Source: an uncultured virus (IMG/VR IMGVR_UViG_3300033388_001820) (lineage: Duplodnaviria > Heunggongvirae > Uroviricota > Caudoviricetes). Taken from it: 64,000 nucleotides of DNA. The translations under genes and the position numbers were made by a program. The notes beneath the pieces are model-generated. The model ran no database searches. It was given only the letters and a program-made list of their open reading frames with translations, and was not told where the DNA came from. Shown here piece after piece: positions 43,312-62,789 of the stretch; the first letter of the stretch is position 1; each line of letters starts with the position of its first letter. Location of the stretch: IMG/VR virus record IMGVR_UViG_3300033388_001820; one strand, 5' to 3'.

Positions 43312-43543
43312 ATAAGGTACACTACAGTCCATGCATATTAACGTCTCTGACTTGATGGGTCTACCCGTTGTACACACCAGACTATTCGTGGACAACCAAA
43401 AGAATTTGATCATGTTCGAAACGATCGACAAAGACAACCAAGGAGACACGGCGCGTTGGCGGCTGATCTTTACCTGCGACACCGGAAAGGTGATCAGTGA
43501 CGACAGCAGCACACAACAAGCGTTCTCTAACTGGACTATATAA

Positions 43544-43617
43544 GCGTCTCTAGCTCAACTGGCCAGAGCAAGGGGCTTTTAACCCCGAGGTTTTGGGTTC
43601 GAATCCCAAGGGACGCA
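43544..43617 (+). tRNA. tRNA-Lys(TTT)
   Basis: Loop CTTTTAA. Confidence 0.9.
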
Positions 43618-43703
43618 CGATTTTGATTAGACTAGACCAAGGACACAGGGCATAGATGCATCAATGTATCTCAAATGTGGCACCGGCTAAGTCTGAGGCT
43701 AGA

Positions 43704-43776
43704 TCCATCGAGTGCTGACAGGTTCAGCGCCCGCCCTGAAAGCGGGAGTCGCGGTTCGATTCCGTCCCTGATGGAC
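43704..43776 (+). tRNA. Atypical/degenerate tRNA (loop CCTGAAA, nominal TGA, short variable arm)
   Basis: TCCATCG/TGATGGA acceptor, CCCGC/GCGGG anticodon stem, GG-TTCGATT-CC. Confidence 0.5.
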
Positions 43777-43801
43777 ACCTTTCGAGCAAGACAGGAAACG
43801 T

Positions 43802-43960
43802 ATGTTATTAACAAGAACACCTTACTACCATCAATGGTACGAAGGACTGCAATCAATCTATGGGCTGCGAGTGTATTCCTATCGACCAGCAGAAATATAC
43901 AGTCGAAATTGGGAAGACTATGACCCATTCATACTCCCATCGAATTGGGAACCGATCTGA
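43802..43960 (+). CDS. 52-aa NWE-motif mini-protein (not in ORF track)
   Basis: MLLTRTPYY...SRNWEDYDPFILPSNWEPI*. Confidence 0.65.
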   Translation: MLLTRTPYYHQWYEGLQSIYGLRVYSYRPAEIYSRNWEDYDPFILPSNWEPI

Positions 43961-43975
43961 CCAAGGAGGTCCAAC

Positions 43976-45142
43976 ATGCAGTACATCAACGACAAGCTCA
44001 TCAATTGGGCAACCATCATCGACCCGAACGCAATCGTGCAGGCTGAGAAGTCCGCTCGGCTACCGATCGTAGACCGAGTAGCGCTCATGCCAGACGCACA
44101 CGTCGGCATGGGAGCCACAGTAGGCTCAGTCATCGGTACCAAGGGTGCCATCATCCCGGCAGCAGTCGGAGTTGACATTGGCTGCGGCATGATCGCCCAC
44201 CAGTTGGACATGACACAGGAAGACCTACCAGTCAACCTTGACGCGTTCATGCCTGACGTGGAACGTGTCATCCCGGCAGGCGTAGGCAAGGGAAACGACG
44301 GACGCTGGTCCAACGCTGCTGAGAAGTGGCTGACCGACTGGACTCCACGGTTCTCAACAAAACTTGACGCCAAGCTCAACATCAAGATTTTGGATCAGTA
44401 CGGTAGCCTCGGCTCCGGTAATCACTTCTTTGAAATCTGCGTGGACGAGACAGGTGGCGTCTGGTTCGTGATCCACTCCGGGTCGCGAGGTATCGGCAAC
44501 ATGCTGGCGCAACGACACATCAAGGCAGCCAAGGCGCTGTGTGCATCGAAGGGCATCAAGCTTGAGGACAAGGACCTAGCATACCTGTCCGAAGGTGAAG
44601 ATGAGTTCTATTTGTACATGGATGACCTCGCTGCATGTCAGGACTACGCACGGGCAAACCGTGAGCAGATGATGCATCGTGTAGTTCTTGCTTTCCGTGC
44701 CTTCATCGGTCGGAAGGTTGGAATCAGTACGACAATCAACTGTCATCACAACTACACTGAGCGTGAAGTTCACGACGGCGAAGAGCTATGGGTCACCCGC
44801 AAGGGAGCGATCCGTGCAGGCGTCGGAGACTTGGGTGTCATCCCTGGTTCGATGGGGACTCGTTCCTACATCGTGAAGGGGCTAGGCAACGCCGAGTCGT
44901 ATTGCTCTTGCAGTCACGGCGCAGGTCGTGTACACTCAAGGTCAGCAGCTAAGCGTATCTACACTGTAGATGATCTAGCTTTGGCTATGGAAGGCAAGGT
45001 GTGGAACTCTAACAAGGCACAGTCTTTGGTTGACGAGATCCCACAAGCATACAAGTCGATCGATCAGGTGATGGAAGACCAGAAGGATCTCGTTGAGGCA
45101 ACTCATACGCTTTCCCAGGTGTTCAATTTCAAGGGGGCGTGA
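43976..45142 (+). CDS. rtcB: RtcB RNA ligase
   Basis: MPDAHVG.GATVG, VGVDIGCGM, GSLGSGNHFFE, HSGSRG, HHNY, RKGA, IPGSMG, SHGAGR, DEIPQAYK. Confidence 0.97.
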   Translation: MQYINDKLINWATIIDPNAIVQAEKSARLPIVDRVALMPDAHVGMGATVGSVIGTKGAIIPAAVGVDIGCGMIAHQLDMTQEDLPVNLDAFMPDVERVIPAGVGKGNDGRWSNAAEKWLTDWTPRFSTKLDAKLNIKILDQYGSLGSGNHFFEICVDETGGVWFVIHSGSRGIGNMLAQRHIKAAKALCASKGIKLEDKDLAYLSEGEDEFYLYMDDLAACQDYARANREQMMHRVVLAFRAFIGRKVGISTTINCHHNYTEREVHDGEELWVTRKGAIRAGVGDLGVIPGSMGTRSYIVKGLGNAESYCSCSHGAGRVHSRSAAKRIYTVDDLALAMEGKVWNSNKAQSLVDEIPQAYKSIDQVMEDQKDLVEATHTLSQVFNFKGA

Positions 45143-45294
45143 TGTTCACCAGAACCGACCGTGGAGCAGGCACAGAATTTCGTGAAAACGATTACGTTCT
45201 GATGGTCTACTTTTGGCGGTCGGATCTGGTGATCATTTCCCTTGACCAACCTCACTTGCAAGACAAACTCCCATTGAACTGGGAGAGCATCTGA
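45142..45294 (+). CDS. 50-aa NWE-motif mini-protein (not in ORF track)
   Basis: MFTRTDRG...DKLPLNWESI*, coupled to the rtcB stop. Confidence 0.65.
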   Translation: MFTRTDRGAGTEFRENDYVLMVYFWRSDLVIISLDQPHLQDKLPLNWESI

Positions 45295-45295
45295 C

Positions 45296-45341
45296 CCGAA
45301 CACTTGTTCGGTTTGCACAACGAACACTCATTCATTAGGTT
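45296..45341 (+). promoter_or_regulatory. SOS box adjacent to a putative promoter
   Basis: CCGAACACTTGTTCGG (45296-45311); TTGCAC-N17-TAGGTT (45313-45341) with degenerate box CGAACACTCATTC in the spacer. Confidence 0.6.
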
Positions 45342-45513
45342 CCCCTATAGGGAAGGAGTCACGATTTCAAGTGACTCACGGAGGCAACAGCGAAAAAGGG
45401 ATTAGAGTAGCTAGGGTGACAAACCAGTATCCTTGATGCCGGGGAGTTCCGGCTAGACACAGCAGCCATCTGCGGGTGGTAGGCATCTGTTAGGTCACCC
45501 CCTCCACTCCAAC

Positions 45514-45542
45514 TTGACACAGCTACACCGGCGTGTTATGCT
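45514..45542 (+). promoter_or_regulatory. SigA-type promoter
   Basis: TTGACA-N17-TATGCT. Confidence 0.72.
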
Positions 45543-45559
45543 GTATCGTATTCAAACTA

Positions 45560-45636
45560 GGGAATGTAGCTCAGTAGGCCAGAGCGCTCGGCTCTTAACC
45601 GAGATGTCGTGGGTTCGATTCCCACTATTCCCACCA
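45560..45636 (+). tRNA. tRNA-Lys(CTT)
   Basis: Loop CTCTTAA, ACCA. Confidence 0.92.
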
Positions 45637-46028
45637 TGAGTCGCACAATGGTTCTCGCAGGAGCACCAGACCAGATGATCCAAACCGAGTACAAGCATCC
45701 AAACAGTTATGGTTTGCGATGCGACAGGGACGGACGTGTGGTAGTGTACATTACCGTAAAGCATCAGACTTCAAGTCAGAAGCTTTGGGGTTACAGCTCT
45801 GTGAAAAATCATTCAGAGATGCTGCCAGGACACTGGATTAGCTGAGGGAGCAAGACATGATTGTACATCTCAAGACACCATTCGAATACGACGGAAACGG
45901 GGACGGTGTGATTCAGTATGAAGGAGAATTAGTTCCTGCGGGACTGAACATTATAGGCCGCGACGGCAAGACATACATTCTGCCGTTTGAGAACGTGCTC
46001 GTGATGGAGAACCCTGATTCGTCTGATC

Positions 46029-46679
46029 ATGACGAAAGTTGAGGTTGATGTTGATATTGATCTGACGAAGGATGAGGTTGATGAGGTTGAGGTTGACATT
46101 GATCTAACGAAACTTGATGTTGATGTTGATCTGTTCGCCTTGTCGAACCAACTTGTTAGATATGGTGGCATAGTTCCTCCATACCTTGCGGATGAGGCGA
46201 TGGGAGCAGCGTTGGAAGCAGCTTGGCTAGCTGAACAACAATATGATGATTCGAAACACAATGACCCCGAGTCATACATACGATACATCGTCAAGCTGCG
46301 ACTCATCGACTTTATACGTGGATGGACAAAGGATCGCCCGCCGTCCCAACATGATCCTGCTCGTGAGACGTTTCAGTATCGACAGATGAAGACACTGACC
46401 ACATCCTATCAAGGATCAGAAGAGCTAGAGCGCAAAGGCGTGCCTTATGTTGAAGATCATGCTGACGATCTGATTGAACGGGAAGGAGTCCTGCAATTAT
46501 TCGAAGACACGCCATTGTCTGACGTCCAACGTTTGACAATGAACGAGTCGATTTTTGAAGGACTTCCGTTGAAGGAGATTGGTGCTCGTAGAGGCGTGAC
46601 GGAAAGTCGAACGAGTCAAATTCGTACTGAGTCCGTTAAAATCTTGCGAAGGTTTGCTGCTCGAAAAGGGTTTATGTGA
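46029..46679 (+). CDS. Sigma-70 family sigma factor (FliA/WhiG-like region 4)
   Basis: YIVKLRLIDFIR (region 2), LKEIGARRGVTESRTSQIR (region 4.2); acidic VDIDLTK repeat at N-terminus. Confidence 0.8.
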   Translation: MTKVEVDVDIDLTKDEVDEVEVDIDLTKLDVDVDLFALSNQLVRYGGIVPPYLADEAMGAALEAAWLAEQQYDDSKHNDPESYIRYIVKLRLIDFIRGWTKDRPPSQHDPARETFQYRQMKTLTTSYQGSEELERKGVPYVEDHADDLIEREGVLQLFEDTPLSDVQRLTMNESIFEGLPLKEIGARRGVTESRTSQIRTESVKILRRFAARKGFM

Positions 46680-46896
46680 TGGAGCCTGACGGCCACTTCG
46701 ATAACCAAGAAGAAGGATACACTGTCGCCTGGAAACGTGGCTACGATCATGAACGACGCGGAGAGTGGGATGTTTATGTTCTGCTCTCCGCATGGGAAGA
46801 CGAGCTAGGCTTTTGGACTAGGCAATGGTCGATGATGTCACGCAACGCACAGGTGGGGCTGCCTAACTACAAGAACTGGGAACACGCCTAACATGA

Positions 46897-46970
46897 GGAC
46901 ACGTAGCTCAGATGGCAAGAGCACCTGCTTGACATGCAGGAGGTCAGGGGTTCGAATCCCTTCGTGTCTA
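46897..46970 (+). tRNA. tRNA-Val(GAC)
   Basis: Loop TTGACAT. Confidence 0.9.
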
Positions 46971-47177
46971 CAAAGTGCCTAAACGTTGGTACGAGACAGA
47001 CGCTAACGGTCGTTGCGTTTGGAACGAGGCAGACCCTCAAGTGATGGGGAACAAATGGACCATCGAATGGGTTGATCTGGGTGTCCTCAAAGGCAAAGGT
47101 GTGCTTGCATACCATGATGGTCCGAAAGGATGGAAGAACAGCGGGTTCATGATCAACAATTGGGAACCTGCATACTA

Positions 47178-47263
47178 GGGCGTGCGGCAACGACGGCGAG
47201 TTGCGCTTGGCTGTAAACCAAGTCCTTTCAGGTTAGCAGGTTCGAATCCTGTCACTCCCACCA
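47178..47263 (+). tRNA. tRNA-Tyr(GTA)
   Basis: Loop CTGTAAA, long variable arm, ACCA. Confidence 0.88.
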
Positions 47264-47830
47264 TGATCAATCACAACGGATTCCATGTAGACCTCGGAGG
47301 CGAGTTCGTCTGGTATCATCAAGACGGCGTAGATGTGGTCATCCGTACACCGTTCAACGATGAAACCCGTTGGTGGGTTGATGATCCCGAAACGATTGGC
47401 GACGCTTGTGATGGTCCAGCAAATTGGGAGTGGGCATGGCGCTCAATGACATAAGCCACACCGAATACATAAACGGCGTGCAGATATGGTCAAGTGACAA
47501 CGACCACTGTATCTACTTCTCCCGTGAAAAGTCACCGATCTACGACGGACCAATCAACACCACCGTACTCTTTGGGAAAGGAGCAACGCAAGTCGACGGC
47601 CCTAAGAACTGGGAGCCAGCATGATCTTTCAGATCGTTGACCAATATTCTAATCTCTCTGACAGTACCAAGATCGTTGTTGGATGGGTTGAAACAGACGA
47701 AGAAGGCAAGATTGATTTTGGATTGATGTTCTACATCGGAACCAACCTCATCAGAGGGGTGACTAAGAATTACAACCTCGGAGGTGCTGGCGAACACGTC
47801 CTAGGCAATTGGGAACCCACATGACAACAA

Positions 47831-47904
47831 GCCGCATTAGCTCAAGTTGGAAGAGCACTCGCTTGTCACGCGAGAGGTCGCCGGTTCGAACCCGGTATGT
47901 GGCG
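47831..47904 (+). tRNA. tRNA-Asp(GTC)
   Basis: Loop TTGTCAC. Confidence 0.9.
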
Positions 47905-47917
47905 CTAAGAAAGACAG

Positions 47918-47991
47918 CCGCCTGTAGCTCAGCGGATAAGAGCATCTGGCTACGAACCAGAAGGTCGGGGGTTCAAATCCCTCCAGGCGGG
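47918..47991 (+). tRNA. tRNA-Arg(ACG)
   Basis: Loop CTACGAA. Confidence 0.92.
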
Positions 47992-48007
47992 CAAAGAAAG
48001 GAGACAC

Positions 48008-48706
48008 ATGCATACCAAACCATGCACGATATGCGAGGCAGAATACCCTGTCAACGGAGACTACTTCTACAGAAATGCCAGAACATCCGATGGGTTCAGG
48101 AGCCGTTGCAAGAACTGTGAACGGCCCGATATTGGCAAGAAGTTAGAGTACGACCCTGAATGGCGAAGCCGGAAACGAGAATACGAACGAGTCTACATTG
48201 AACGCAAGCTGAAAAGCTGGGTAGAAACCAATGGCCCTCTACCTACTTGCGAATGTGGCTGCGGAACTGTTGTTGGGTGGGCACGCAAAACTGGAAGCCC
48301 TGCAAGGTTCGTAAAGAACCACTATTACCACACCGCAGAGTGTGCAGAGACATCAGCCAAAACTCTACGTGAATATCATCTCCACAAGTTTGAAGATGGA
48401 GACTTCATCGAGATCAAAAAGCTTCGCAAAGCAATACGTCAAATCAAAGCAAACAAAGGATGGACCTGGAAAGAACTAGCCGACCACGGTGGCCTGTCTT
48501 TCGGGCACCTAAGAAGTATGATGTCGGATAAGAGAGTGGTCTCCGTGCGTCATGACCTTGCTTGGGGTTTCTTTCGGAGGATCGCTGAGCTACCCGCTCC
48601 GGCTTCAACTTTTCAGAAGCGTGAACTTGCTAAGGATTCAATGGCGGACGCTGGCATGGACCGTGACGTCTATACCGGACCAATTCCAGTGAACACGCAC
48701 GAGTAG
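48008..48706 (+). CDS. Putative Zn-finger plus HTH DNA-binding protein
   Basis: CTIC..F....DG....CKNC, CECGCG..RFVKNH, GWTWKELA..GLS HTH-like segment. Confidence 0.6.
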   Translation: MHTKPCTICEAEYPVNGDYFYRNARTSDGFRSRCKNCERPDIGKKLEYDPEWRSRKREYERVYIERKLKSWVETNGPLPTCECGCGTVVGWARKTGSPARFVKNHYYHTAECAETSAKTLREYHLHKFEDGDFIEIKKLRKAIRQIKANKGWTWKELADHGGLSFGHLRSMMSDKRVVSVRHDLAWGFFRRIAELPAPASTFQKRELAKDSMADAGMDRDVYTGPIPVNTHE

Positions 48707-48772
48707 CTCAGTAGGAAGAGCATCTGTATGGTACACAGAAGGCCGGGAGTTCGAATCTCCCCTTGTGCTCCA
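48697..48772 (+). tRNA. tRNA-Thr(GGT)
   Basis: Loop ATGGTAC, TCCA. Confidence 0.88.
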
Positions 48773-48786
48773 AGTATGCTACACTT

Positions 48787-48863
48787 ACCCTCGTAGCTCA
48801 GCGGATTAGAGCAGCAGGCTTCGACCCTGCGTGTCGGCGGTTCGAATCCGTCCGAGGGTGCCA
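48787..48863 (+). tRNA. tRNA-Arg(TCG)
   Basis: Loop CTTCGAC, GCCA. Confidence 0.88.
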
Positions 48864-49553
48864 AGGAGAAAAACACATGGCTAAAGAAGCAATGACTAGA
48901 GAAGAATACATGCGTGAGATTTACAACCAAGAAGGTGGCGACAAGAAGGTGCGTCATCGGGTAGCGACGTGGGCTAACGCTAACACGTCCACGAAACGGG
49001 GGTCCTGACGTTGTGCAATGGGAAGTAACGCCGATCTATTCGTTGGGTAACACAACAGCTACTCATCACATTCGGCAGCCGATACATGATCAACCAGAAC
49101 CGGACAGCAGCATGACTTTTCAAAGATGGGGTTCACGTCCCCGACGTAATGATGACCCTGACGATAGCTTCGTTGTAGTAGCCTTGGAAGAGTACGAAGA
49201 CTTTGCCTCTGCTTCACCGCGTGATGCTCTCGATCTACTTCAAGAAATGAGCGTCAATTCGTTTGCTCTGCCTAAGTCATGGGAAACGATTTCGGTATGA
49301 CCACATTTGAAGTTCACTCGCGATACGATGACGGATGGACGCTACGGTGGTCCGAGAATCTAGACAAACCAACACGCAGCGAGTGGACGTATGTCACCAA
49401 CGTGCCTAACGACCCTGGACCTCCCGACAAAGATCCCGTTGCTCATCTTGATGAACACAATGGAGAGTGGGAGATTTGGGTAAAAGAAAACGACATGGCG
49501 GGTAGACAAACGACAGAACCAATTGGCCTCGCGAATTGGGAGCCAGCGTACAC

Positions 49554-49626
49554 GTCCTTGTAGCTCAATGGACAGGGCAGTGGGTTCCTAACCCAAAGAT
49601 TGCAGGTTCGACTCCTGTCAAGGACA
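49554..49626 (+). tRNA. tRNA-Arg(CCT)
   Basis: Loop TTCCTAA. Confidence 0.88.
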
Positions 49627-49853
49627 CTATGAAAGATCACCAAGTCACTGGTAAGTGGGAAACCATCGGTGACATTAGACATGACGGCTGGTACTTTCAA
49701 TTCAAAGAACCATCCGGCAACTTGTATGGCCCGGAGTATGCACGGTACACTGAACTAATCGTGTTCTTCGGGTCGCCGTACCGGTGGCAGATCATAGATC
49801 AAGGAGCTATCTGTTTTGACGGTAGTGATGTCAAAAATTGGGAGTTCGTATAG

Positions 49854-49936
49854 GGAAGGTCCGGCATTGGTGAGCCAAGCTGTTTCGAAAACAGTGGGGT
49901 CGAAAGGCTCGGTAGGTTCAAATCCTATACCTTCCG
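49854..49936 (+). tRNA. tRNA-Ser(CGA)
   Basis: Loop TTCGAAA, long variable arm. Confidence 0.85.
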
Positions 49937-50099
49937 CAAACAAGGAGGAATACGATGAGTGGTTGTAGTTGTTGTGGAGTTCAAGCAGGGTCTTGTTTCT
50001 GTGGGGTTAACAGACTGGAACCTTTGGAAAAAAGAGTCAAACACTTAGAAGATAGAGAACGAGGTTTGCTCGGACTCATAAAACGCCTCAAAGATTCTC

Positions 50100-50184
50100 G
50101 GAAGGACTGACATTGGGGAGTCAAGCGTCTTGGAAAGGCGTCGGAGTTTCAAAGCTTCTGCGGGTTCGATTCCCGTTCCTTCCT
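50100..50184 (+). tRNA. tRNA-Ser(GGA)
   Basis: Loop TTGGAAA, long variable arm. Confidence 0.82.
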
Positions 50185-50193
50185 CGCAAGTCT

Positions 50194-50277
50194 GGAATCA
50201 TGACCAGCAGTATGGGCTGGCCCTGTTTTGAACGCAGGTACCTCGCAAGGGGGCGGGTTCGAACCCCGATGTTTCCG
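50194..50277 (+). tRNA. tRNA-Ser(TGA)
   Basis: Loop TTTGAAC, long variable arm. Confidence 0.78.
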
Positions 50278-50488
50278 CTATGAAAACAACAGCTATACTC
50301 CAGTCCCTGTACGAACCTACCAGCTACAGAAAGATCATCGTTCTGTTTGTGGCCTGTCTCACTGCTCTAGTCGTGAGTTTCATTCTGATCATAGGCGGTG
50401 CTAGTTGGGGTCTTCTCATCGGTATGCCTGCTGCTGCGTTTGGTGGTGGCTGGTTTGCCTACATGTACAACTATGAAGTGAAACACTA

Positions 50489-50582
50489 GGAACGGTGGCC
50501 GAGTCTGGTCTATGGCACCACCCTGCTAAGGTGGAGGCCCTCGTAAGGGGGTCCGTGGGTTCAAATCCCACTCGTTCCTCCA
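50489..50582 (+). tRNA. tRNA-Ser(GCT)
   Basis: Loop CTGCTAA, long variable arm, TCCA. Confidence 0.9.
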
Positions 50583-50600
50583 TTCCAATCAAACAGACTT

Positions 50601-50676
50601 GCCCCCATAGTGCAGCGGCCAAGTACGCTACCCTTTCAAGGTAGAAGCACGGGTTCAAATCCCGTTGGGGGTACCA
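50601..50676 (+). tRNA. tRNA-Glu(TTC)
   Basis: Loop CTTTCAA, ACCA. Confidence 0.92.
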
Positions 50677-52590
50677 TCGCATGGGCTACACTGACAAGTG
50701 ATTGATCAAGACATCGGTCGTCGCTGGACAACCTTCTCAGAAGATGCTATCATACTGGCACACCTGTATGACGGCCAAGGCCCACCAGTAACGGTCGTTC
50801 ATCAAGAACTCGATGCCATGTTATGCACGATCGCTCACAATTGGGAGACAACATGAGAGTAGTCATCATGGCTCTGCCAAACGGCAAGGCTCAACCCACT
50901 GACATGCTGGAGACTTTCCGTCTAGCCTTGGATTGCGGCGAAGTTTTCGTTAACGGAGAACACTATTTGATCACCGGACCAGACCGAATGACGAACTATT
51001 CTCTTGATGATCGGTACTTTGATCAGTTACCTTCATGGTGGGAGCCAAGATAATGTACACTACGAGGTTATGCAGGAATTGTGGCAGACAGACGATACGT
51101 ATTTACAGGTCCAAGGACGAGGCGGTACGCTGCTCTGCGTAGTCCAAGAAGATGGTACTGTGAAAGTGTTAGCAACATTTGAGCGCATCGACTCCGACGA
51201 TATTGAAGAAGTGGTAGAGCTGCTACAGTTAGGACTAGAAACTCGTGAAGCCCCTGGTGGCGGACCTCCCGGTGGCGGCGGACCTCCCGGCGGCGGACCT
51301 CCCTGACCTATGAAGACCAACCGTTCAAGGAGAAATCATATGGATAGTGACACCTGGACCAAGAACTGGACCATCGGTCGTGTGCAAATCGGATACCGAA
51401 TTATGAGACACAACTACCCACAAGGAGATCATCGACTCGTGATTCATCCATCTTTCACTGTTGACTACGGACGGCGGAAGCCGATCGTCTCTCGGATGGA
51501 GACAGAAGAATGAGTGATTGCCACGATCCGGTTTGTGAGATTCTGAGTACCCAGTCAGTCAGAGAATTGAAAGCTATGCAGGCCACGATTGATGATCTGT
51601 ACGCTAGAAACGCTGAACTGGAAGAGGACTTTGATGATCTCATGAAGAACGACGAACAAAACGACGCCACAGTCGAACGACTACAAACAGCGCTGGAGAA
51701 GATCGCCAACGGTTGCAAGTCTGACAACGGGTCGGTGAAGATGGGAGCCAAGAAGGCTCGACGTATCGCTGCTGCTGCTCTCGCTGCGGAACGACCGTTC
51801 TTTGGTGGTGGCCTTCTGTTCTCGCAGAAGAAGCAGTCATGACCGATGAAGAACGCGACAAAACACTTCTTCTCATAGGGTTGGTAATGATGGTCAGTGC
51901 AGCTATGGGGGCGTCTGGCGGCTGGCTAGTCGTTGCCCTCATCCCACCAGCAATTCTGTTGATTTCTGCTGTCTTCCGGTTCGCTGACGACGAGTGGGAA
52001 TCATGAACGAGGACGACATGCATTGCCCTCGATGCACCCGACGAGGAAACCGGTGGTACTGCCGGATGTGCAAGGGAACACACAAGATCACGAAACAAAA
52101 GAGTGATTGGCTCTGGGACACAGGAAGAACAATGAGGGGAGGGTGATCATGAGTGACGACGGACATCGCAAAAATTGTTGGTGCGCTCCTAACCGGAAGC
52201 CGTGTGCGTATCACGAAGGGTTCCAAGACGCCCAGGACAAAAACGACGAGCAGCTACGGGCTGCGCTGAAGGTTGTACACAGTCTCACTCGGCCTGGTGT
52301 TGCTGATCGGTTCTTGCGGGATGTAATTGCTGACCTTCACGAGCACACCTGCGTCGTTCTTGAAATCAAACCTTTATCATGACCGACTGGCGATGTAACT
52401 GCGTTCGTCTCCCCGGCGAGCATTATCACCAGCAAGACGCCTACTTGATGGTCGCCGAGATTGAGGTACTACAGGAAGCACTAGCTGAGATCGGTGACTA
52501 TCACGATGACGGTAGTACCAGCTCCATATATACACAGAACCGTGTTGCCGAGGTGCTCGGTGACGACTGGTGGGAAAGCAGGTTCGGCCA

Positions 52591-54421: not shown

Positions 54422-54425
54422 CTAT

Positions 54426-54506
54426 GCGCTTGTGGTGGAAAGGAAGACACAGGGAGCTTAAGCCTCCCTGCCGTAAGGCGTGAGAGTTCGAATCTCTCCA
54501 GGCGCA
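54426..54506 (+). tRNA. tRNA-Leu(TAA)
   Basis: Loop CTTAAGC, long variable arm. Confidence 0.88.
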
Positions 54507-54512
54507 CAACAT

Positions 54513-54590
54513 GGTTCATTAGCTCAGCCCGGTAAGAGCAGCGTCCTGATACGACGAAGGTCACTGGTTCAAATCCAGTATGAACTACCA
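54513..54590 (+). tRNA. tRNA-Ile(GAT)
   Basis: Loop CTGATAC, ACCA. Confidence 0.9.
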
Positions 54591-54598
54591 TTACATTT

Positions 54599-54684
54599 GC
54601 CCAGGTGGCGGAATTGGCAGACGCGCCAGGCTTAGACCCTGGTATCCGTAGAAGGGTGTAGGGGTTCGAGTCCCCTCTTGGGCA
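54599..54684 (+). tRNA. tRNA-Leu(TAG)
   Basis: Loop CTTAGAC, long variable arm. Confidence 0.9.
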
Positions 54685-55344: not shown

Positions 55345-55740
55345 ATGGTGCCGATGATATCATATGAAGTGGGTAACGATCTTGGCGATCGAGAACAAAA
55401 TTCCGTACATCAAGATGAATGGCCAGACCCCTCCATGTTTTACCTGCAATGACAACGAATATGGTACACCGGTTTGCAGATGTAAAGCTCCGAGTAACTG
55501 GGTGTACACTCACGAGATTTCTGATATGCTAAGATTAGCAAGGTACGGGAAGTATCCCGACTGGTTTATAAAGGAGTAAACGATGGGAAGATGCGAACAT
55601 CCAGAATGTGAAGTGTCAGCGCACCGACGAATTTTCGTTGGTGAAGAGGTGTACGAATACTGTCTAGAACATTACGACGTGGCGACTGCTGTTCAACAAA
55701 ACAGGAGACCACAATGGGAACCAGACAACTCTTGAAACTT

Positions 55741-55823
55741 GCGTCTGTGGTGGAATGGCAGACACGCCAGTCTGAGAGGCTGGTGCCCGGAAGGGCGTGT
55801 GGGTTCAACTCCCACCAGACGTA
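55741..55823 (+). tRNA. tRNA-Leu(GAG)
   Basis: Loop CTGAGAG. Confidence 0.88.
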
Positions 55824-55827
55824 CTAT

Positions 55828-55902
55828 GCGGGTGTAGCTCAATGGCTAGAGCCTCAGTTTTCCAAACTGATGATGAGGGTTCGATTCCCTTCACCCGCTC
55901 CA
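55828..55902 (+). tRNA. tRNA-Gly(TCC)
   Basis: Loop TTTCCAA, TCCA. Confidence 0.93.
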
Positions 55903-56328
55903 TGTTAGACAATTACATCGCTCATTACGTTGCCCCTGGGCCGACTCCGTTGTTCTATTCGCTAGTCGAATATCTAGTGTTTGGTCTGTGTGATTACAGT
56001 GACACTACCGACATCGCTATCCGATACGAAGAAGGCGACCATAATGGTTCAAAAGTCATGCCAAGAAATTGGGTAACGCTATGATTGAGTACAACATCGA
56101 GAAGCCTACCGAGCCTGAGTTTTTTCAGGAGACTGGCAACTGGTATCGGAGGCGATGGTCGCTCAGTATGTACCAGAACGTCGTGCTGCTTGAAACGGAC
56201 GGACCGATCAACAGAGACGGGGACCTCACGTTGATCTCGTACTGGGATAGCACCAATTCTTACAAGACAGAAAGACACCGTTTGCCTAACTCTTGGGTGT
56301 GGGCATGACGATGAGTAATGTAATACAC

Positions 56329-56401
56329 GGGTTAGTAGCTCAATTGGTAGAGTACAACCTTGCCAAGGTTGATGTTGCCGGTTCAAGTCCGGTCTAGCCC
56401 T
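56329..56401 (+). tRNA. tRNA-Gly(GCC)
   Basis: Loop TTGCCAA. Confidence 0.9.
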
Positions 56402-56544
56402 CGCTGGTTGCAGGGAGAATATTCGGAACCAGACGCCCCAGGGCAAGTAGCCCTTGGGTATTTCGATGCCCCTCACCCAAGTTTTTCCTCTGGTGAAAGC
56501 GCAGGCTGAGGCACCCCGTTGACTTATCCCTGCAACCATGCTAT

Positions 56545-56620
56545 GCTTCGGTAGCTCAGTTGGAAGAGCGTCGCTCTCGTAAAGCGAAGGCCGCGAGTTC
56601 AAATCTCGCTCGAAGCTCCA
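56545..56620 (+). tRNA. tRNA-Thr(CGT)
   Basis: Loop CTCGTAA, TCCA. Confidence 0.92.
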
Positions 56621-57010
56621 AGGAGATTAGGATGAATGGATGATACCGATCAAGAGTTCTGGAGTGTGGTCAACCACAGCCTCACCGACGAGGACGACGG
56701 GAGGCCCACTCGGTGGGAGATGGCCGCTTGGTTCGTCACCTTCGTGGTGTTGATCGGCCTGCTCGTTATTGGTCCCATCTGGGTGGTGTTCCTATGAGAG
56801 AAGAACGTCCGTCGACGCGCAGTGTAAGCAGAAGGAGTTAAGTCGACTATGAGTGAGTGATCCTGATACATTATGCGGTTACACCTTTGATGTCTTGCAT
56901 GACCTGGGATGCGCGGTATAGCAACCTCCTGGCCAGACCCCTTCAAGTGGAAGGAAGAGGGATCAAAGCGCAGTATCAGGTCTTCCACTAGGGAAGAGAA
57001 GAAAGTACAT

Positions 57011-57086
57011 GCCGAATTAGCTCAGTGGCCAGAGCAGTGCTCTTGTAAAGCGAAGGTCCTCGGTTCGACTCCGAGATTCGGCTCCA
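57011..57086 (+). tRNA. tRNA-Thr(TGT)
   Basis: Loop CTTGTAA, TCCA. Confidence 0.92.
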
Positions 57087-57629
57087 TGAATATGAGATAC
57101 GAAAAATACTGGGGAGGCGCTGCTGACGGCGGCTTCTGGAACTGGACGGCTCAGCGACCTGGGCAAGAGAAGTGTATTGGCATGGGCTGGTATCGTTGGA
57201 CAGCCTGGCTCAAAGCATGGCGTGCCACAAGGAACGCCCCTTACATGGAAGAATGGTAAATCATGGCAAGTTTTCACACACCCTCAGAACTACTCGCTTA
57301 TGGAGATTTCATCTACGACAAGTTTCTCACTGTGACCGAGGTCACAACCCTTGAAGGAACAGGCGTTATCGTGGCCGGTAGGCGCGGAGGCACAGGCAAA
57401 GCAGAAACGCACACCTTTGAGACCGACGACAAAGTGTGGATTCATCGCACCAACCACATCTTCGACTGTGGACCTGATGCCCAATGATGGACGCGTTTGA
57501 CGATTACATGCTTCGCATGTACCCTCCACCAATCGACCCTGACAAAGAACGTCTACGCAGGGACATGAACAAGGCTCGACACGCTGCATTGGATGCGGGT
57601 GAGCCTGACCCTTTCGTCATATACATCAA

Positions 57630-57705
57630 GGTACCGTAGCTCAGCAGGAAGAGCGCTGGCGTGAAGCCCCAGAGGTCGTTGGTTCGACTCCGACCGGTAC
57701 CACCA
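57630..57705 (+). tRNA. tRNA-Phe(GAA)
   Basis: Loop GTGAAGC, ACCA. Confidence 0.85.
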
Positions 57706-57729
57706 CTCCAACCATGCTATACTATCTCC

Positions 57730-58698
57730 ATGAGCATTGATCAAGTACAAAAAAACCTAGAGAAGAAGTTCGGCAAGGGTGCCGTCGTTCGCATGAACGA
57801 CAAACCTCAAGACATTGAAGTAATCCCGACAGGGAACATAATCCTCGACATGGCTCTAGGTGTTGGCGGCTACCCGCGAGGTAGAATCGTTGAAATCTTC
57901 GGACCTGAATCCTCTGGCAAGACAACGCTGGCTACACACGCAGCGGCTGAAGCACAGAAACTCGATTTGAACGTGGCCTACATCGACGCAGAGCACGCTA
58001 TTGACCCGACATACACCGAAGCGTTGGGCGTAGACCTTAACGCTGTCCTGCTCAGTCAGCCTGACAGCGGCGAGCAGGCTCTTGAGATCGCTGACGAAAT
58101 GGTCAAGTCAGGAGAGTTCGGATTGATCGTAGTGGACTCTGTAGCGGCTCTCACGCCTCGTGCAGAGCTAGCAGGTGAGATGGGAGACTCTCATATGGGG
58201 CTGCAAGCACGGTTGATGGGGCAGGCTCTACGCAAGATGCGTGGCACCGCCAACACAACTGGTACGACGCTCATCTTCGTCAATCAGATTCGTGAGAAGA
58301 TCGGGGTCATGTTCGGGTCGCCAGAAACTACACCGGGTGGACGTGCGCTCAAGTTCTTCTCCACTATCCGTCTCGACATCCGTCGCATCGGTGCGATCAA
58401 AAACGGTGTTGAGATCATGGGCAACGAGACACGAGTCAAAGTCGTCAAGAACAAGGTGGCACCGCCGTTCAAACAGGCCGAGTTTGACATCATGTATGGT
58501 CGTGGTGTGTCGCAGTCAGGGTCGATCATTGACCTCGGCGTGGCAGAGGACTTGATCTTGAAGTCCGGCGCGTGGTACACTATCGGAGAAGAGCAGGTGC
58601 AGGGTCGTGAGGCTGCCAAAGATTCGCTAGAATCTCAGCCTGATCTGATGGCGGAACTGTACGAGAAGCTAGCCTACGAGGACGAGACAGGTGACTGA
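57730..58698 (+). CDS. recA: Recombinase RecA
   Basis: [78 protein letters not shown] at 57718-57723 suggests a leaderless transcript. Confidence 0.98.
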
Positions 58699-58866
58699 AT
58701 TCCATTTAAGAGACGGACGTCGACGTAAGGCCACTTTGCGCACCGGGAATAGTCATAGCAAACGAAGCTACAAGAAGGCCCGAAGCAAAAGCGAGAAACG
58801 TGACCGGGCAGAACAGAATGAGATCAGACAACTGAAACGTATTCTCAGAAACGAACAAGAAGCAAG

Positions 58867-58942
58867 GGACGTGTAGCTCAGCAGGAAGAGCAGCGGTTTT
58901 ACACACCGCAGGTCGTCGGTTCGAACCCGGCTACGTCCACCA
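58867..58942 (+). tRNA. tRNA-Val(TAC)
   Basis: Loop TTTACAC, ACCA. Confidence 0.92.
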
Positions 58943-58973
58943 GAAAGGATTAAGTCCCCTTCGGGGGCAAGTT

Positions 58974-59051
58974 GTGGCAGTAGCTCAGTCTGATTAGAGC
59001 GTCGGGTTGTGATCCCGAAGGTCGCGGGTTTAAATCCCGTCTGTCACCCCA
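58974..59051 (+). tRNA. tRNA-His(GTG)
   Basis: Loop TTGTGAT, C73-CCA. Confidence 0.88.
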
Positions 59052-59314
59052 TCGCAAACAACAAGAAAGAGAGAAACACACATGTTGTGGTTCATTATTT
59101 TCTACCTAGTCATGATGGCAGTGTTCGCTCAGTGGATCATCATTCCCCTGTACTCCAACGAACACGGAATACTTGAGATGCTCGCTCCTGAGACGCACGA
59201 AGAGTGGGAGCAGCAAACCAACACCGTAAAGACGGTCATCACTTTGATCGTCTCAGCCTTTTGGCCGCTCATCGTTATTGGAACCGCCGTTGCGATGTTC
59301 CAGAAAGTCATCAG

Positions 59315-59455
59315 ATGATAGCACTACTGACAATCATCGCAGCGATACTGTTCGTGCGTGTTGCCGTTGATGCTAATCGTCGTCGCGGATACGTCGCAAA
59401 GTTTGTAGTAGCCTTCGTGGTCGCGTGGGTTGTGCTCTTCCTTATGGGCATCTGA
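59315..59455 (+). CDS. 46-aa membrane protein (paralog of 5114-5248)
   Basis: MIALLTIIAAILFVRVAVDANRRRGYVAKFVVAFVVAWVVLFLMGI. Confidence 0.75.
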   Translation: MIALLTIIAAILFVRVAVDANRRRGYVAKFVVAFVVAWVVLFLMGI

Positions 59456-59465
59456 AAGGATAGAC

Positions 59466-60212
59466 GTGAAGATAGGATTTCTTGGCGACGTACACGGTAG
59501 CCCCGGCTGGGTGAAGTGGGCGTTCGCAGAACTTGTGAAGCAAGGAGCTGAGATAATCGTTCAGCTAGGTGACCTCATGTACTGGGAACACAAACCCGGT
59601 GGCAAGGAGTTCATCGACTACATCCAAAGCCTGTGCGACGAATACTGTATTGATTTCTGGTGGATTGATGGGAACCACGAGAACTTTGATTGGCTATACG
59701 ACTATCCGCTTGATAGAAACGGGCGTAGACCTATCCGGCCGAACGTCATTCATCTGCCTCGTGGACATGCTTGGGAATGGGATGGCGTGAAGTTCCTAGC
59801 CTTCGGCGGATCATACTCCATCAACAAGGACATGCTTACCCCTGGTGACTCGTATTGGCCACAGGAGATGCCGACAGTACAAGAAGTCGACATTGCTCGT
59901 GCGGTTGGCAAAGTAGATGTCATGATCAGTCATGACGTGCCTGAAGGTGCGGACCTAGCGGATTTGTTAGGACCGTCTTGGATGGTATTTGCTACGCATC
60001 CTGCCGAGTGTGGGATTGTACGAAGACGAGTACGGGACGTATGGGACATTGCACAACCGAACTGGCTTTTTCACGGGCACTATCATCGGAGGGCTAACAG
60101 TGTACTTGGTAGGACGCGCATCGTGGGCCTGGCTAACGAAAACACCGGACCCAATTCTATCTATCTTGCAGACACCAATAGCCTACGTTCAGGGTTTGCT
60201 GGAACAATTTGA
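59466..60212 (+). CDS. Calcineurin-like metallophosphoesterase
   Basis: GDVHG, QLGD, GNHE, SHD, HGHYH. Confidence 0.92.
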   Translation: MKIGFLGDVHGSPGWVKWAFAELVKQGAEIIVQLGDLMYWEHKPGGKEFIDYIQSLCDEYCIDFWWIDGNHENFDWLYDYPLDRNGRRPIRPNVIHLPRGHAWEWDGVKFLAFGGSYSINKDMLTPGDSYWPQEMPTVQEVDIARAVGKVDVMISHDVPEGADLADLLGPSWMVFATHPAECGIVRRRVRDVWDIAQPNWLFHGHYHRRANSVLGRTRIVGLANENTGPNSIYLADTNSLRSGFAGTI

Positions 60213-60321
60213 TGACGCTCTCACTGCTGTTGACTACAGTGGTTGGGACGATTACTACCTCTACAATTTCGGTTTCCATCTCCCGATACCTAAAAACTGG
60301 GAGCCGGGGGTCGTGTATCTT

Positions 60322-60395
60322 GGTGGCGTAGCTCAGCAGGTTAGAGCAACGGGTTCATAATCCGTAGGTCGTTGGTTCAAATCCAACCGTCACTA
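60322..60395 (+). tRNA. tRNA-Met(CAT) (elongator or Ile2)
   Basis: Loop TTCATAA. Confidence 0.88.
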
Positions 60396-60402
60396 CTCTA
60401 AG

Positions 60403-60431
60403 TTGACAACGGCGTTATACCGTAGTACACT
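60403..60431 (+). promoter_or_regulatory. SigA-type promoter
   Basis: TTGACA-N17-TACACT. Confidence 0.7.
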
Positions 60432-60514
60432 AACACATGAGAACGCCATGCGGTTCATCTACTCTCGGTCGGGGGTCGAACCGTTACACGGTGGCCCCCG
60501 ACACACAATTTCGA

Positions 60515-60592
60515 TGCAGGGTGGAGCAGTCTGGTCAGCTTGCTTGGCTCATAACCAAGACGTCGTGGGTTCGAATCCCACCCCTGCCACCA
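60515..60592 (+). tRNA. tRNA-Met(CAT), initiator-like
   Basis: Loop CTCATAA, 1:72 mismatch, GTGGAGCAG D-arm, ACCA. Confidence 0.85.
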
Positions 60593-60647
60593 ACTTAGAA
60601 AGGCAACATGGAACTCAATATACCAGCCATCATTTTTTAACACACAC

Positions 60648-60722
60648 GGGGGTGTAGCTCAGCCTGGCTAGAGCATCTGCTTTGCAAGCAGAAAGTCGTG
60701 GGTTCGAATCCCATCTCCTCCA
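60648..60722 (+). tRNA. tRNA-Ala(TGC)
   Basis: Loop TTTGCAA, G3-U70. Confidence 0.9.
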
Positions 60723-60735
60723 CTTTTTACCACGC

Positions 60736-60820
60736 GGGGACGTGGCGGAATTGGCAGACGCGCTGGGTTCAAGCTCCAGTGAGATAATACCTCGTGAGGG
60801 TTCAAGTCCCTCCGTCCCTA
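60736..60820 (+). tRNA. tRNA-Leu(CAA)
   Basis: Loop TTCAAGC, long variable arm. Confidence 0.9.
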
Positions 60821-61013
60821 CTATGACGAAACTCACGCAACATCAACATCTAGGTTCCCGTATGCCAACTGTTGAATTTCATGAAGACAATTGCAATCTT
60901 TGGGCACATCAAGAAGGATGGATCTGTGGCATCGCTCATGAAGACAGTGGAGCATTGTGGCATGATCAAGTTTCTTCTCACGACCTAGCAAATTGGGAGT
61001 TCATATAGTCCGA

Positions 61014-61086
61014 GCCTTTGTAACTCAGCGGACAGAGTGGCAGGTTTCTACCCTGCTGGGCGTAGGTTCGAATCCTACCAAGGGCG
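61014..61086 (+). tRNA. tRNA-Arg(TCT)
   Basis: Loop TTTCTAC. Confidence 0.88.
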
Positions 61087-61483
61087 CTAAGCAATTACCT
61101 ACGAATGGAGAACTCATGGAATACGGTTTCGAAACTGGTGAAGAACCAACCGAGGAAGAAATGGAGCAGATGGAATCCGACTACGCAAAGTACGCTGGAC
61201 AACAGATCGCTTACGTCGATCGACTCTATGATTTCGTGAACGGCTTGGACAAAGCACAGTTGGATGCGTTCCTGCAACTAACCAAACAGTTCGGAACGAG
61301 TCCTACTACGATCCAGTTCTGGTCAGGCTACTCCCGTGCCCTCAGGTACGCCAAGTTTGATGTGAACCCGAACCCGTATGTACCGAAGCTGAATCCCGAA
61401 GATTTCATAGATAACGCTGAAACCGAAGAAGAAAACTGATATGCTCTAGACTAGATCCCGATACAACATAGGAGGTGGGTGAC

Positions 61484-61978
61484 ATGGGTGGAGTTCTGTT
61501 GCTGAATGCAACATATGAGCCAATGCGTGTCCTGCCTCTCAAGCGGGCTATCGTACTTGTGCTGCAAGAGAAGGCCGAGATCGTAGAAGACGAAGGCGGT
61601 GTGATCAGGTCTGAGAACCTGTCTATCACGCTACCAAAGGTGATCCGTCTGCTGTACTACGTGAAGATTCCGTACAGGAAGAAAGTGCCGCTCTCTAACA
61701 GGACCGTGCTTGTCCGAGACAAGTTCAAGTGCGCGTACTGTGGCCAGAAGGCAACTACAATCGACCACGTGTGGCCCAAGTCTTTGGACGGTGCCCACGA
61801 CTGGACGAACGTTGTTGCAGCATGTCAGCCATGCAACCAGAAAAAGGGCAACCGGACTCTGGATCAGCTAGGTTGGACGTTGCCATTCAAGCCTGACAGG
61901 CCAACCACACGCAAGTGGGTTGTTGTCGAAAGGATTGAGAAGTCATGGGTCCCATATCTAGAGATGGCGAGCGCATGA
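61484..61978 (+). CDS. HNH endonuclease
   Basis: VLLLNATYEP, RDKFKCAYCG, TIDHVWP, WTNVVAACQPCNQKK. Confidence 0.92.
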   Translation: MGGVLLLNATYEPMRVLPLKRAIVLVLQEKAEIVEDEGGVIRSENLSITLPKVIRLLYYVKIPYRKKVPLSNRTVLVRDKFKCAYCGQKATTIDHVWPKSLDGAHDWTNVVAACQPCNQKKGNRTLDQLGWTLPFKPDRPTTRKWVVVERIEKSWVPYLEMASA

Positions 61979-62028
61979 TTGAGGGAGTTGGTCGGTGGGG
62001 GGCGCGTTCCCTGCCGACCTCTCCACGA

Positions 62029-62103
62029 GCGGGTATAGCATAATTGGCAGTGCCGCGGGCCTTGGCCCCGCTAGTTCAAGTTCGAGTCTTGATACCCGTA
62101 CCA
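62029..62103 (+). tRNA. tRNA-Gln(TTG) with C33
   Basis: GCGGG-CCTTGGC-CCCGC arm, ACCA. Confidence 0.75.
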
Positions 62104-62243
62104 TGAAACAGTTCTACAGTTCACGATTCTACTCTTGGGCTACACGTGACGCCTACGGCATCAATTACAACGCCGAGTACGCTTTGGTTCACGATGAGAT
62201 CAGTGGCTTAACGTACATCAGTGTACACTCTATACCCGCATCA

Positions 62244-62789
62244 TTACTCCCCAGAAACTGGGGCGGATAAGTATGAACCCCCCGCATCCCTCAGCTTGTA
62301 TCTGTTGCTCCAAGGCAATGGAAGGCTGCTGCTGACGCCGAGAAAGCTCAACAAGGGATCAGGGTCCTCTACTAAATCCTCAAGATAGAACTGAGCGACG
62401 GCTATCTCAGATACCAAGTCGTTCCAAGCATCCCACCAGTATTCGGCGCGTCTGCGTGGGTCGATGACTCGGCTCAAGCCTGGAAGGATACGTTCAGCGT
62501 AACGGGAGCTAGTCTCGATTACTCCGTTGATCAGTAGACTAGCGATGCAAGCCTGTCTGTTTCTCAGAAGTTGTATGACTATCAGTTCAGAGACAGGGAA
62601 GAGGGGAGCCATCCAAGAACTATCTCCAGCATATTCACCCCAGTCAACGTCGCCGTACAAAGACATGCCGTTGAAAACTCTTTCATGTCCAGTGAGTCGA
62701 CCTGCGTCAGTTATCAGTTCTGAAACAGACCGGGTACCGGAACGAGGCATCCCGGTGATTACAAACTTAGAACTGTCCTTGACCGGCAC
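62244..62789 (-). CDS. Sulfotransferase-like / P-loop protein
   Basis: FVITGMPRSGT, GHERVF, LLRN...IASL; start codon uncertain. Confidence 0.65.
   Translation of the reverse strand: MPVKDSSKFVITGMPRSGTRSVSELITDAGRLTGHERVFNGMSLYGDVDWGEYAGDSSWMAPLFPVSELIVIQLLRNRQACIASLLINGVIETSSRYAERILPGLSRVIDPRRRAEYWWDAWNDLVSEIAVAQFYLEDLVEDPDPLLSFLGVSSSLPLPWSNRYKLRDAGGSYLSAPVSGE

Follow-up and report, generated by a model that had tools for sequence, protein, structure and literature searches.

A C-terminal Asn-Trp-Glu tail common to small proteins interleaved with a phage tRNA array: a candidate docking tag

Encapsulin cargo-loading peptides are C-terminal, and the capsid-targeting sequence of T4 internal proteins is N-terminal. 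Tethering tails are exemplified by the C-terminal ClpX-binding peptide of SspB, the C-terminal tip of SSB and the acidic tails ending in Phe of T7 gp2.5 and gp4, while in poxvirus ankyrin-repeat proteins a C-terminal PRANC/F-box-like domain plugs varied target-binding bodies into one host machine. Here we analyze a stretch of 64,000 nucleotides (nt), hereafter the window, that is part of a 73-kb contig from an uncultured large phage (IMG/VR record IMGVR_UViG_3300033388_001820). Small open reading frames (ORFs) are interleaved in this window with the 40 genes of a tRNA array that lies entirely on the + strand (41774..62103), and many of the encoded proteins, which we call carriers, end in a tail composed of a hydrophobic residue, Pro, any residue, Asn, Trp and Glu, plus two or three further residues. 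The reading that best accommodates the data, to which we assign a probability of about one half, is that this tail may operate as a docking tag at the C-terminus of small, acidic and probably early-expressed proteins.

An earlier note on this DNA, made from the sequence alone, had reported about 20 mini-proteins with a common C-terminal motif, and all 20 of the C-termini it quoted were found to end where it placed them. Four looser members were added (AHNWETT, ending at 50856; RPQWEPDNS, at 55735; DDEWES, at 52006; and DDWWESRFGQ, at 52594). The resulting set of about 22-24 carriers comprises small proteins of 48-88 amino acids (aa), mostly acidic and Trp-rich, and outlines a tail consensus of [L/I/M/G]-[P/L]-x-[N/S/H]-W-[E/V/T]-x-x-COOH. 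The nucleotide pattern AAYTGGGAR presents 17 matches in the window, all on the + strand and 15 of them within 43907-60999, versus 1.70 +/- 1.40 (maximum 5) in 100 shuffles. The NWE tripeptide is observed 17 times in + frames and never in - frames, and the stop codon follows Glu within seven residues in 12 of these instances and after exactly two residues in nine.

When stop-to-stop frames of at least 40 codons are considered, NWE at most eight residues from the stop is detected in 12 of the 161 + frames right of 41.7 kb, in none of the 278 + frames to the left and in none of the 505 - frames. The looser pattern W[EVTIG]x(1-4)-stop yields 23/161, 0/278 and 8/505, respectively. The motif is hence enriched both over shuffles and over ORFs outside the tRNA region, and its reported concentration in that region is confirmed. 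As an external control, 50 loci around RecA relatives returned six NW[EVTIG]-near-stop matches in total, with at most one per locus. The exact 24-nt pattern CCNNNNAAYTGGGARCCNNNNTGA matched only singly, 27 times across 2.9 million viral contigs, at scattered places and never in clusters. A Gibbs sampler run on full-length carriers, a sequence set that had been chosen by the motif itself, recovered the tail in 21 of 23 (240.4 vs 178.7 +/- 2.7 shuffled). The motif is real, and constitutes a translated short peptide under selection that is anchored to the C-terminus.

Frame bias, which had been put forward as a way of probing the motif, is evident in the absence of NWE from - frames and in coding scores. 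A codon model trained on the long genes of the window scored the motif frame best of six in 22 of the 24 ORFs, the remaining two being those at 43802..43960 and 55583..55735, which remain weak by coding score. The 24 sites were also aligned on the Trp codon for information content and codon use. Information content is 3-periodic, with values that are high at the first two codon positions and drop at the third, and the wobble positions of Asn and Glu carry 0.26 and 0.33 bits. Codons are mixed throughout the motif (AAT 9/AAC 7; GAA 9/GAG 9; Pro CCT 6/CCA 5/CCC 2), and Leu is encoded by five different codons (CTC, CTG, CTT, TTA and TTG), with Ile or Met as substitutes. The stop lies exactly three residues after Trp in 13 of the 24 carriers and two residues after it in four, and Trp is located 2-8 residues from the end in 23. 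All three stop codons (TGA, TAA and TAG) are used, and the Trp-stop spacing does not depend on whether the next element is a tRNA, an ATG that overlaps the stop or a gene further off. The 3-periodicity, the mixed codons and the fixed stop distance bear out the earlier argument that synonymous DNA variation favours a peptide-level signal. The motif is conserved as amino acids, not as nucleotides.

The same data bear on the opposite possibility, that of an RNA or DNA element. Under this alternative, a UGGGAR nucleic-acid element would provide Shine-Dalgarno (SD)-like coupling to the next cistron or a tRNA-mRNA processing site, and the peptide would be a by-product. Some gene junctions are suggestive of coupling, since seven of the 24 motif ORFs end in NNA-TGA, producing a stop-overlapping ATG, and GGGAG lies 5 nt before the ATG at the junctions 47454>47436, 47624>47621 and 50856>50853, so that the Trp-Glu codons may double there as a ribosome-binding site. 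The other 17 ORFs, however, lack an overlapping start. These three junctions, or arguably five of the 24 cases, have a GGAG-like core 5-9 nt upstream of the start codon, and it is absent for carriers that precede tRNAs or genes with their own SD site.

The relationship with tRNAs is similarly partial. The motif had been noted to lie shortly before tRNA 5' ends, and this stands for ten of the 24 motif ORFs, in which the distance from Trp to the tRNA varies between 12 and 35 nt. Its specificity did not hold up, as non-motif genes abut tRNAs about equally. In an automated gene call, a tRNA lies at most 25 nt downstream of 7/20 regex-positive vs 5/26 regex-negative genes, the former including one false positive (an HNH gene) and the latter wrongly including 59989-60360. 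Furthermore, 30 of the 40 tRNAs have no upstream motif. The non-coding copy described earlier (AACTGGGAG; 54222..54230, + strand) is indeed present: it sits in a hairpin loop of the 71 nt that separate tRNA-Asn from tRNA-Cys (54198-54268), a spacer that forms a 13-bp stem bearing two hairpins (-32.1 kcal/mol, z = -2.8) and has no match in Rfam. This copy is probably due to chance or a relic.

Integron attC sites and T4-type PeSL are known DNA elements at cassette boundaries, but no stem-loop or inverted repeat kept as DNA was detected at the tails. RNAalifold identified 0 consensus pairs in 22 motif-centred windows, no Rfam family fits the motif element, and the - strand holds no motif copy that could act as an inverted partner. 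No DNA repeat accompanies the motif: of the at least 60 repeat families found, 20 were listed, and each of these derives from tRNAs. A nucleic-acid element would also account for GGGAR only, not for Asn, Pro or Leu, whereas wobble positions are free, Leu uses both CTN and TTR codons, and Glu is encoded by GAA as frequently as by GAG. Moreover, the 278 + frames without the motif belong to a left 41 kb that is equally compact. The alternative is therefore weakened by the 3-periodic information, the Leu and Pro codon variation, the lack of a common RNA structure and of an inverted partner, and the equal tRNA adjacency. We regard it as very unlikely, and a nucleic-acid role of the motif as possible only as a secondary use.

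A signal read on the nascent peptide at termination would cover both the peptide-level conservation and the fixed stop distance. Such a peptide would pause or modulate release, for instance shielding the tRNA precursor or aiding re-initiation, and the presence of Pro right after Glu in eight of the 24 carriers is in line with this idea. The two residues next to the stop are nonetheless the least conserved, the stop distance spans the 2-8 residues mentioned above, one carrier has no stop before its tRNA, and the stop context shows no link to what follows. We know of no arrest peptide with this pattern, and we consider this explanation the least probable of those examined here.

Outside the tail, the carriers have little in common. 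All-versus-all BLASTP searches returned mostly the tail itself, and the best pair outside it, formed by the proteins ending at 46891 and 49563, matched with E = 2.6e-4. Iterative HMMER searches with tail-trimmed sequences against the 944 ORFs of the window joined only this pair (2/24), and a Gibbs sampler did not identify a second common motif in the trimmed carriers (log-likelihood ratio of 192.6 vs 188.4 +/- 3.3 shuffled). The carriers can hence be described as unrelated at the sequence level, as had been proposed, and, except for one pair, a short terminal peptide is their sole similarity. None of the 24 matched Pfam or PHROG at E < 1e-4, and the Atlas provided only unnamed viral clusters and one low-confidence model, with a predicted local distance difference test score (pLDDT) of 0.48.

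These results are central to the main rival of the docking tag, which posits one fast-evolving paralogue family, expanded in this lineage from a single small fold, whose best-preserved structural element would be the tail and which would require no common partner. The Trp of, for example, the last strand would pack on the core, and the rest would have diverged past sequence recognition. The carriers are clustered on the same strand and similar in size and composition, with an isoelectric point of 4.1-5.1 in 21 of the 24, bodies rich in Trp and Tyr, and a Trp share of 3.7% in those bodies vs 2.1% in large proteins. The 46891/49563 pair is related outside the motif, as are a few more marginal ones. 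A precedent exists in RaK2, for which the genome paper states that nearly 10% of gene products are paralogues (PMC3622015). Homology along the body, on the other hand, was not found beyond the one pair joined by HMMER, nor was a second motif, and no fold model reached usable confidence (pLDDT 45-47; Atlas 0.48). In addition, between the 49563 protein and its relative P0004, divergence peaks immediately ahead of the tail and includes indels there, which would be unusual for a core strand. On balance, a diverged family appears possible but rather unlikely.

The retention of the tail was also examined in relatives from other contigs. Word-based searches with two single carriers returned nothing beyond the queries themselves. 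A profile of the 46891/49563 pair searched against 1.84 billion representatives identified two real relatives (P0002 and P0004) and two repeat-protein artefacts, and a follow-up search with the alignment added P0007 and P0008. The 46891 protein (A7) shares 69-76% identity with P0002, P0007 and P0008, which come from other contigs, and in the resulting family of four sequences (GLPxYxNWEH[AT]) L-P and N-W-E never change whereas both x positions do. WEPAYT is kept by P0004, at 45% identity to the 49563 protein, with Gly for Asn, while substitutions and indels accumulate in the approximately 15 residues before the tail. The tail is thus retained in orthologues of two carriers, and the pattern suits a selected terminal motif in these two families.

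Scans of viral contigs for the loci encoding P0004, P0002 and P0007 were empty, and a genome scan gave two spurious short matches. Isolated phages compared by DNA and by three proteins did not include a close relative. IMG/VR contained no relative of the window's sigma factor or of its 555-aa VWA protein, and the IMG/VR neighbours of RtcB and RecA (L001-L069) belong to unrelated phages that lack the motif, one of which (L021) presents 15 tRNAs in a compact array without interleaved ORFs. A metagenome scan with the sigma factor gave no match, and one with the phosphatase returned relatives at 26-37% identity only. Among the latter is a distant relative, the 159-kb metagenomic contig L097, whose phosphatase is 36% identical. 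In its 3273-13691 segment, small ORFs lie among 13 dispersed + strand tRNAs, one of them a CTA suppressor, together with the phosphatase gene and a PTH2-like gene. L097 and a second contig, L098, display a dispersed-tRNA layout like that of the window, and no homologue of any carrier was detected in either of them. Four small ORFs of L097 end in PxxW plus 2-7 residues (PYDWVDPYGDT, PPFWKE, PNDWRFIIT and PVTWEWIN), against one comparable - strand frame, a count made from listed tails that is not significant.

In the docking-tag reading, one putative receptor would recognise the tail along with the free C-terminus, and this docking or tethering tag, common to all carriers, would gather different protein bodies at a single hub or let them act on it. 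The carrier genes are grouped with tRNAs downstream of matches to sigma-70-like promoters, which suggests that their products are probably early host-takeover or counter-defence proteins. Perfect TTGACA hexamers on the + strand, 16-18 nt from a TAnnnT-like -10 element, are located at 42596, 45514, 52828, 53365 and 60403. Several TTGACA -35 matches fall just 5' of tRNA groups and there are few + strand terminator matches, and on these grounds the carrier genes are taken as probably expressed early. In number, the sigma-70-like TTGACA-17-TAnnnT matches do not exceed chance (15 vs 14.8 expected from shuffles). The motif was also considered as a promoter -35 element in its own right, given the likeness of GGGAAC to extracytoplasmic function (ECF) sigma sites, and this was rejected: half of the copies read GGGAG and the -10 element would fall inside the tRNA.

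Candidate receptor classes include a host protease or adaptor, a host machine and a phage protein, and early expression of the carriers would make capsid loading less likely than a receptor in the host or among early phage proteins. None of the genes of the window was recognised as encoding a capsid protein. One candidate receptor could be the VWA protein encoded at 33173-34840, beside a MoxR ATPase, in which the MIDAS signature (DGSGS...T...D) appears intact by eye and for which no solved structure was found among relatives by sequence. A stronger version of the proposal regards the tail as a cargo-type address label, by which more than 20 unrelated mini-effectors would be handled by a single machine, be it MoxR-VWA, the capsid interior or a hijacked host protease adaptor. 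With MoxR-VWA, the MIDAS metal site would bind Glu or the terminal carboxylate; with the capsid interior, the effectors would be co-injected. We view the address label as unlikely. Resemblances to the sortase LPxTG-type signal, the TolB-box DG[ST]GW and the microviridin core KYPSDWEE were also examined and rejected: a signal peptide, a membrane anchor and Thr, Lys or Asp partners are all lacking, and no dedicated ATP-grasp ligase was recognised.

Several observations weigh against a docking tag. The step from tail to receptor is drawn by analogy with terminal motifs elsewhere, and translation of the carriers is judged from codon statistics only. The motif itself is variable, with Glu replaced by T, V, I or G in six of the 24 carriers and Pro absent in 11. 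The trimmed bodies are slightly more alike than shuffled sequences, with a mean Smith-Waterman score of 21.1 vs 20.2 +/- 0.24 and six pairs scoring at least 35 vs a shuffle mean of 1.8 (maximum 6), which hints at some common ancestry. Disorder-promoting residues are not significantly more frequent before the motif than in the bodies (0.57 vs 0.53, p = 0.25), so that an architecture of flexible linker plus tag is not supported, and AlphaFold2 models of two carriers (mean pLDDT of 46.8 and 45.3) are uninformative for fold. In the 46891 family, the whole of the last 22 residues is conserved, and constraint on the motif alone is therefore not separable there. Finally, the distant relatives L097 and L098 lack NWE tails.

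Overall, the peptide-level reading is well supported, and the hub or tag mechanism is plausible. If the docking tag is correct, an 8-residue peptide would provide a handle to pull out the hub of a battery of phage early proteins, and a simple sequence rule to find effector sets in uncultured phages, whose small ORFs are otherwise unannotatable. It would also imply that phages can organise many unrelated mini-proteins by a common address label rather than by common descent. An address label in the strict sense would represent a prokaryotic-virus counterpart of effector-targeting signals, with new effectors enrolled by the gain of eight codons. Even as diverged paralogues, the carriers would be an extreme family case in which only the last 7-8 residues are recognisable. 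The observation is out of the ordinary and lends itself readily to experiment, but it comes from an orphan uncultured lineage.

The carriers, all on the + strand, are distributed along the array as follows. The leftmost ORF (43331..43543, 70 aa), with its stop directly 5' of tRNA-Lys(ttt), ends in AFSNWTI and is a weak motif member, without Pro and with Thr instead of Glu; its coding score is best of six frames. The next (43802..43960, 52 aa; ILPSNWEPI) contains a second, internal NWE at 43907 and is followed 16 nt 3' by the start of RtcB, which has its own AAGGAGG; just 5' of it, at 43706-43774, a tRNA-like match falls below threshold (26.8 bits against a gathering score of 29) and may represent a decayed tRNA. 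Two further mini-ORFs end in KLPLNWESI (45139..45294, 51 aa) and MLPGHWIS (45675..45845, approximately 56 aa, with alternative starts at 45609 and 45636). The 71-aa protein ending in GLPNYKNWEHA (46676..46891) is followed 5 nt past its stop by tRNA-Val, and the gap between this tRNA and tRNA-Tyr is occupied by a 67-aa ORF (46975..47178; FMINNWEPAY). Three consecutive mini-ORFs then span the segment up to tRNA-Asp, which begins 6 nt past the last stop. They correspond to 47263..47454 (63 aa; DGPANWEWAWRSMT), whose ATG overlaps the CCA end of tRNA-Tyr, 47436..47624 (62 aa; DGPKNWEPA; alternative start at 47424), whose stop overlaps the next ATG (ATGA), and 47621..47824 (67 aa; HVLGNWEPT).

Further along, a 62-aa ORF (49112..49300; FALPKSWETISV; alternative start at 49013) precedes the longest carrier (49297..49563, 88 aa; IGLANWEPAYTSL; alternative start at 49279), the TAG stop of which coincides with positions 8-10 of tRNA-Arg(cct), and a 74-aa ORF (49629..49853; GSDVKNWEFV) occupies the gap between this tRNA and tRNA-Ser(cga). 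The ORF at 50698..50856 (52 aa; TIAHNWETT), which is absent from the earlier list, overlaps with its stop the ATG of the next (50853..51053, 66 aa; DQLPSWWEPR; alternative start at 50823). Two doubtful members follow, a 55-aa membrane-like ORF (51839..52006; FADDEWES) and a 71-aa ORF (52379..52594; LGDDWWESRFGQ), and then two 59-aa ORFs ending in AWIPNTWTLA (53334..53513; alternative start at 53310) and TRLPTNWESV (53653..53832). Also absent from the earlier list is the 50-aa ORF at 55583..55735 (NRRPQWEPDNS), with tRNA-Leu(gag) located 5 nt past its stop. The pair formed by 55902..56084 (60 aa; KVMPRNWVTL), whose ATG overlaps the CCA end of tRNA-Gly(tcc), and 56081..56308 (75 aa; HRLPNSWVWA; alternative start at 56069) is followed by an ORF with LPIPKNWEPGVVYL (60100..60360) that reaches tRNA-Met (60322) without a stop and continues for 39 nt inside it, its start being uncertain and its frame open from 59989. 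The last two carriers are a 48-aa ORF (60862..61008; SHDLANWEFI), with tRNA-Arg(tct) 5 nt past its stop, and a 55-aa ORF (62103..62270; SLLPRNWGG) whose ATG overlaps the CCA end of tRNA-Gln(ttg).

The arrangement of ORFs and tRNAs presents several additional features. The ATGs at 47263, 55902 and 62103 (and 49629) overlap or directly adjoin the CCA end of the upstream tRNA, leaving no space for a leader or SD site, and these mini-ORFs stop at the next tRNA, so that the cistrons are punctuated by tRNAs. In four ORFs (ending at 48706, 49563, 57639 and 58876) the stop codon is provided by positions 8-10 (T-A-G) of a tRNA, and ORF 59989-60360 extends 39 nt into tRNA-Met (60322-60360); RNase P cleavage would leave all of these mRNAs lacking a stop. 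In Rfam searches, 39 tRNA-clan matches covered 39 of the 40 tRNA gene sites, two of them scoring as tRNA-Sec. The array opens with two tandem tRNA genes with anticodon CTA (41774-41925), amber suppressors that both encode CCA. Recoding of TAG through these suppressors was considered and rejected, as zero in-frame TAG codons occur inside any confident gene of the window; any recoding would thus concern genes outside it. The sole confident - strand gene within the array (54685-55344) belongs to the Sulfotransfer_2 family (E = 1.5e-15). By eye, the 166-aa ORF at 42013-42513 looks like a cupredoxin, its N-terminus being lipoprotein-like (LLLTACG) and its C-terminus showing a C-x2-H-x4-M pattern, and it returned zero Pfam or PHROGs matches.

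Elsewhere in the window, recognised genes encode RtcB, RecA, a sigma-70-family factor, a metallophosphatase, HNH nucleases, Ku and an ATP-dependent ligase, a RuvB-like ATPase, a MoxR ATPase and a PPDK-like kinase. Large paralogous proteins are encoded in a row at 13311-26310, three of which have a phrog_20946 segment in common and two a dual-specificity-phosphatase-like segment (PTP-SAK, weak Pfam matches), and this run is adjoined by the PPDK/PEP-synthase-like kinase (phrog_18609, E = 7e-117). The RuvB-like ATPase, the Ku-like protein and the ATP-dependent DNA ligase are grouped at 27262-31367, which suggests an end-joining module. The 31842-36239 block comprises the MoxR-type AAA+ ATPase (bpMoxR, E = 4e-47), the 555-aa ViaA-like VWA protein, a small HNH nuclease and a DUF6744 protein. 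The sequencing runs listed for the window included none of RNA, and two sediment DNA runs yielded low-depth contigs of 160-290 nt identical to the window, at a depth too thin for variant analysis, as well as tRNA and RecA look-alikes from other organisms.

Among described systems, jumbo-phage paralogue families, as reported in the RaK2 genome paper (PMC3622015), differ from the carriers in that homology beyond the last 7-8 residues is undetectable here for 22 of the 24. Within a 40-kb stretch of the RaK2 tRNA region (99 annotated features), the 82 annotated coding sequences that were translated revealed no common C-terminus. An "NWE motif" has been described in ciliary microtubule inner proteins as a docking peg that different proteins reuse on one lattice, Trp making a hydrophobic contact and Asn and Glu hydrogen bonds (PMC10973386). 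This eukaryotic motif is N-terminal and helical ([ILV]-L-I-G-N-W-x-E, followed by Mn repeats) and sits at the tubulin seam (PMC10973386), whereas the phage tail is C-terminal with a contiguous N-W-E. The two show no relation by descent or context, and the name is a coincidence. In full-text literature searches, no tail of this kind was found described for phage proteins, and the ciliary motif was the only one under this name.

The PRANC arrangement involves a folded domain of approximately 30-50 residues, homologous repeat bodies and a eukaryotic virus, unlike the 8-residue tail described here. As in the encapsulin and T4 systems, a terminal peptide of approximately 7-10 residues is all that unrelated proteins have in common, there directing them to one receptor. 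The sequence is different, however, and the carriers, for which docking would be the counterpart, lie in an early-looking tRNA region and not with capsid genes. The SspB, SSB and T7 tails offer a comparable design, in which an extreme C-terminal peptide, with an aromatic residue by the free carboxylate, docks several proteins on one hub. The acidic run and final aromatic residue of the SSB and T7 tails are not found in the phage tail, in which Trp is located at -3 or -4 and not last, and Asn and Pro are conserved. Unlike any of these tethering tails, moreover, the tail described here is present on more than 20 carriers in one genome, a far larger number.

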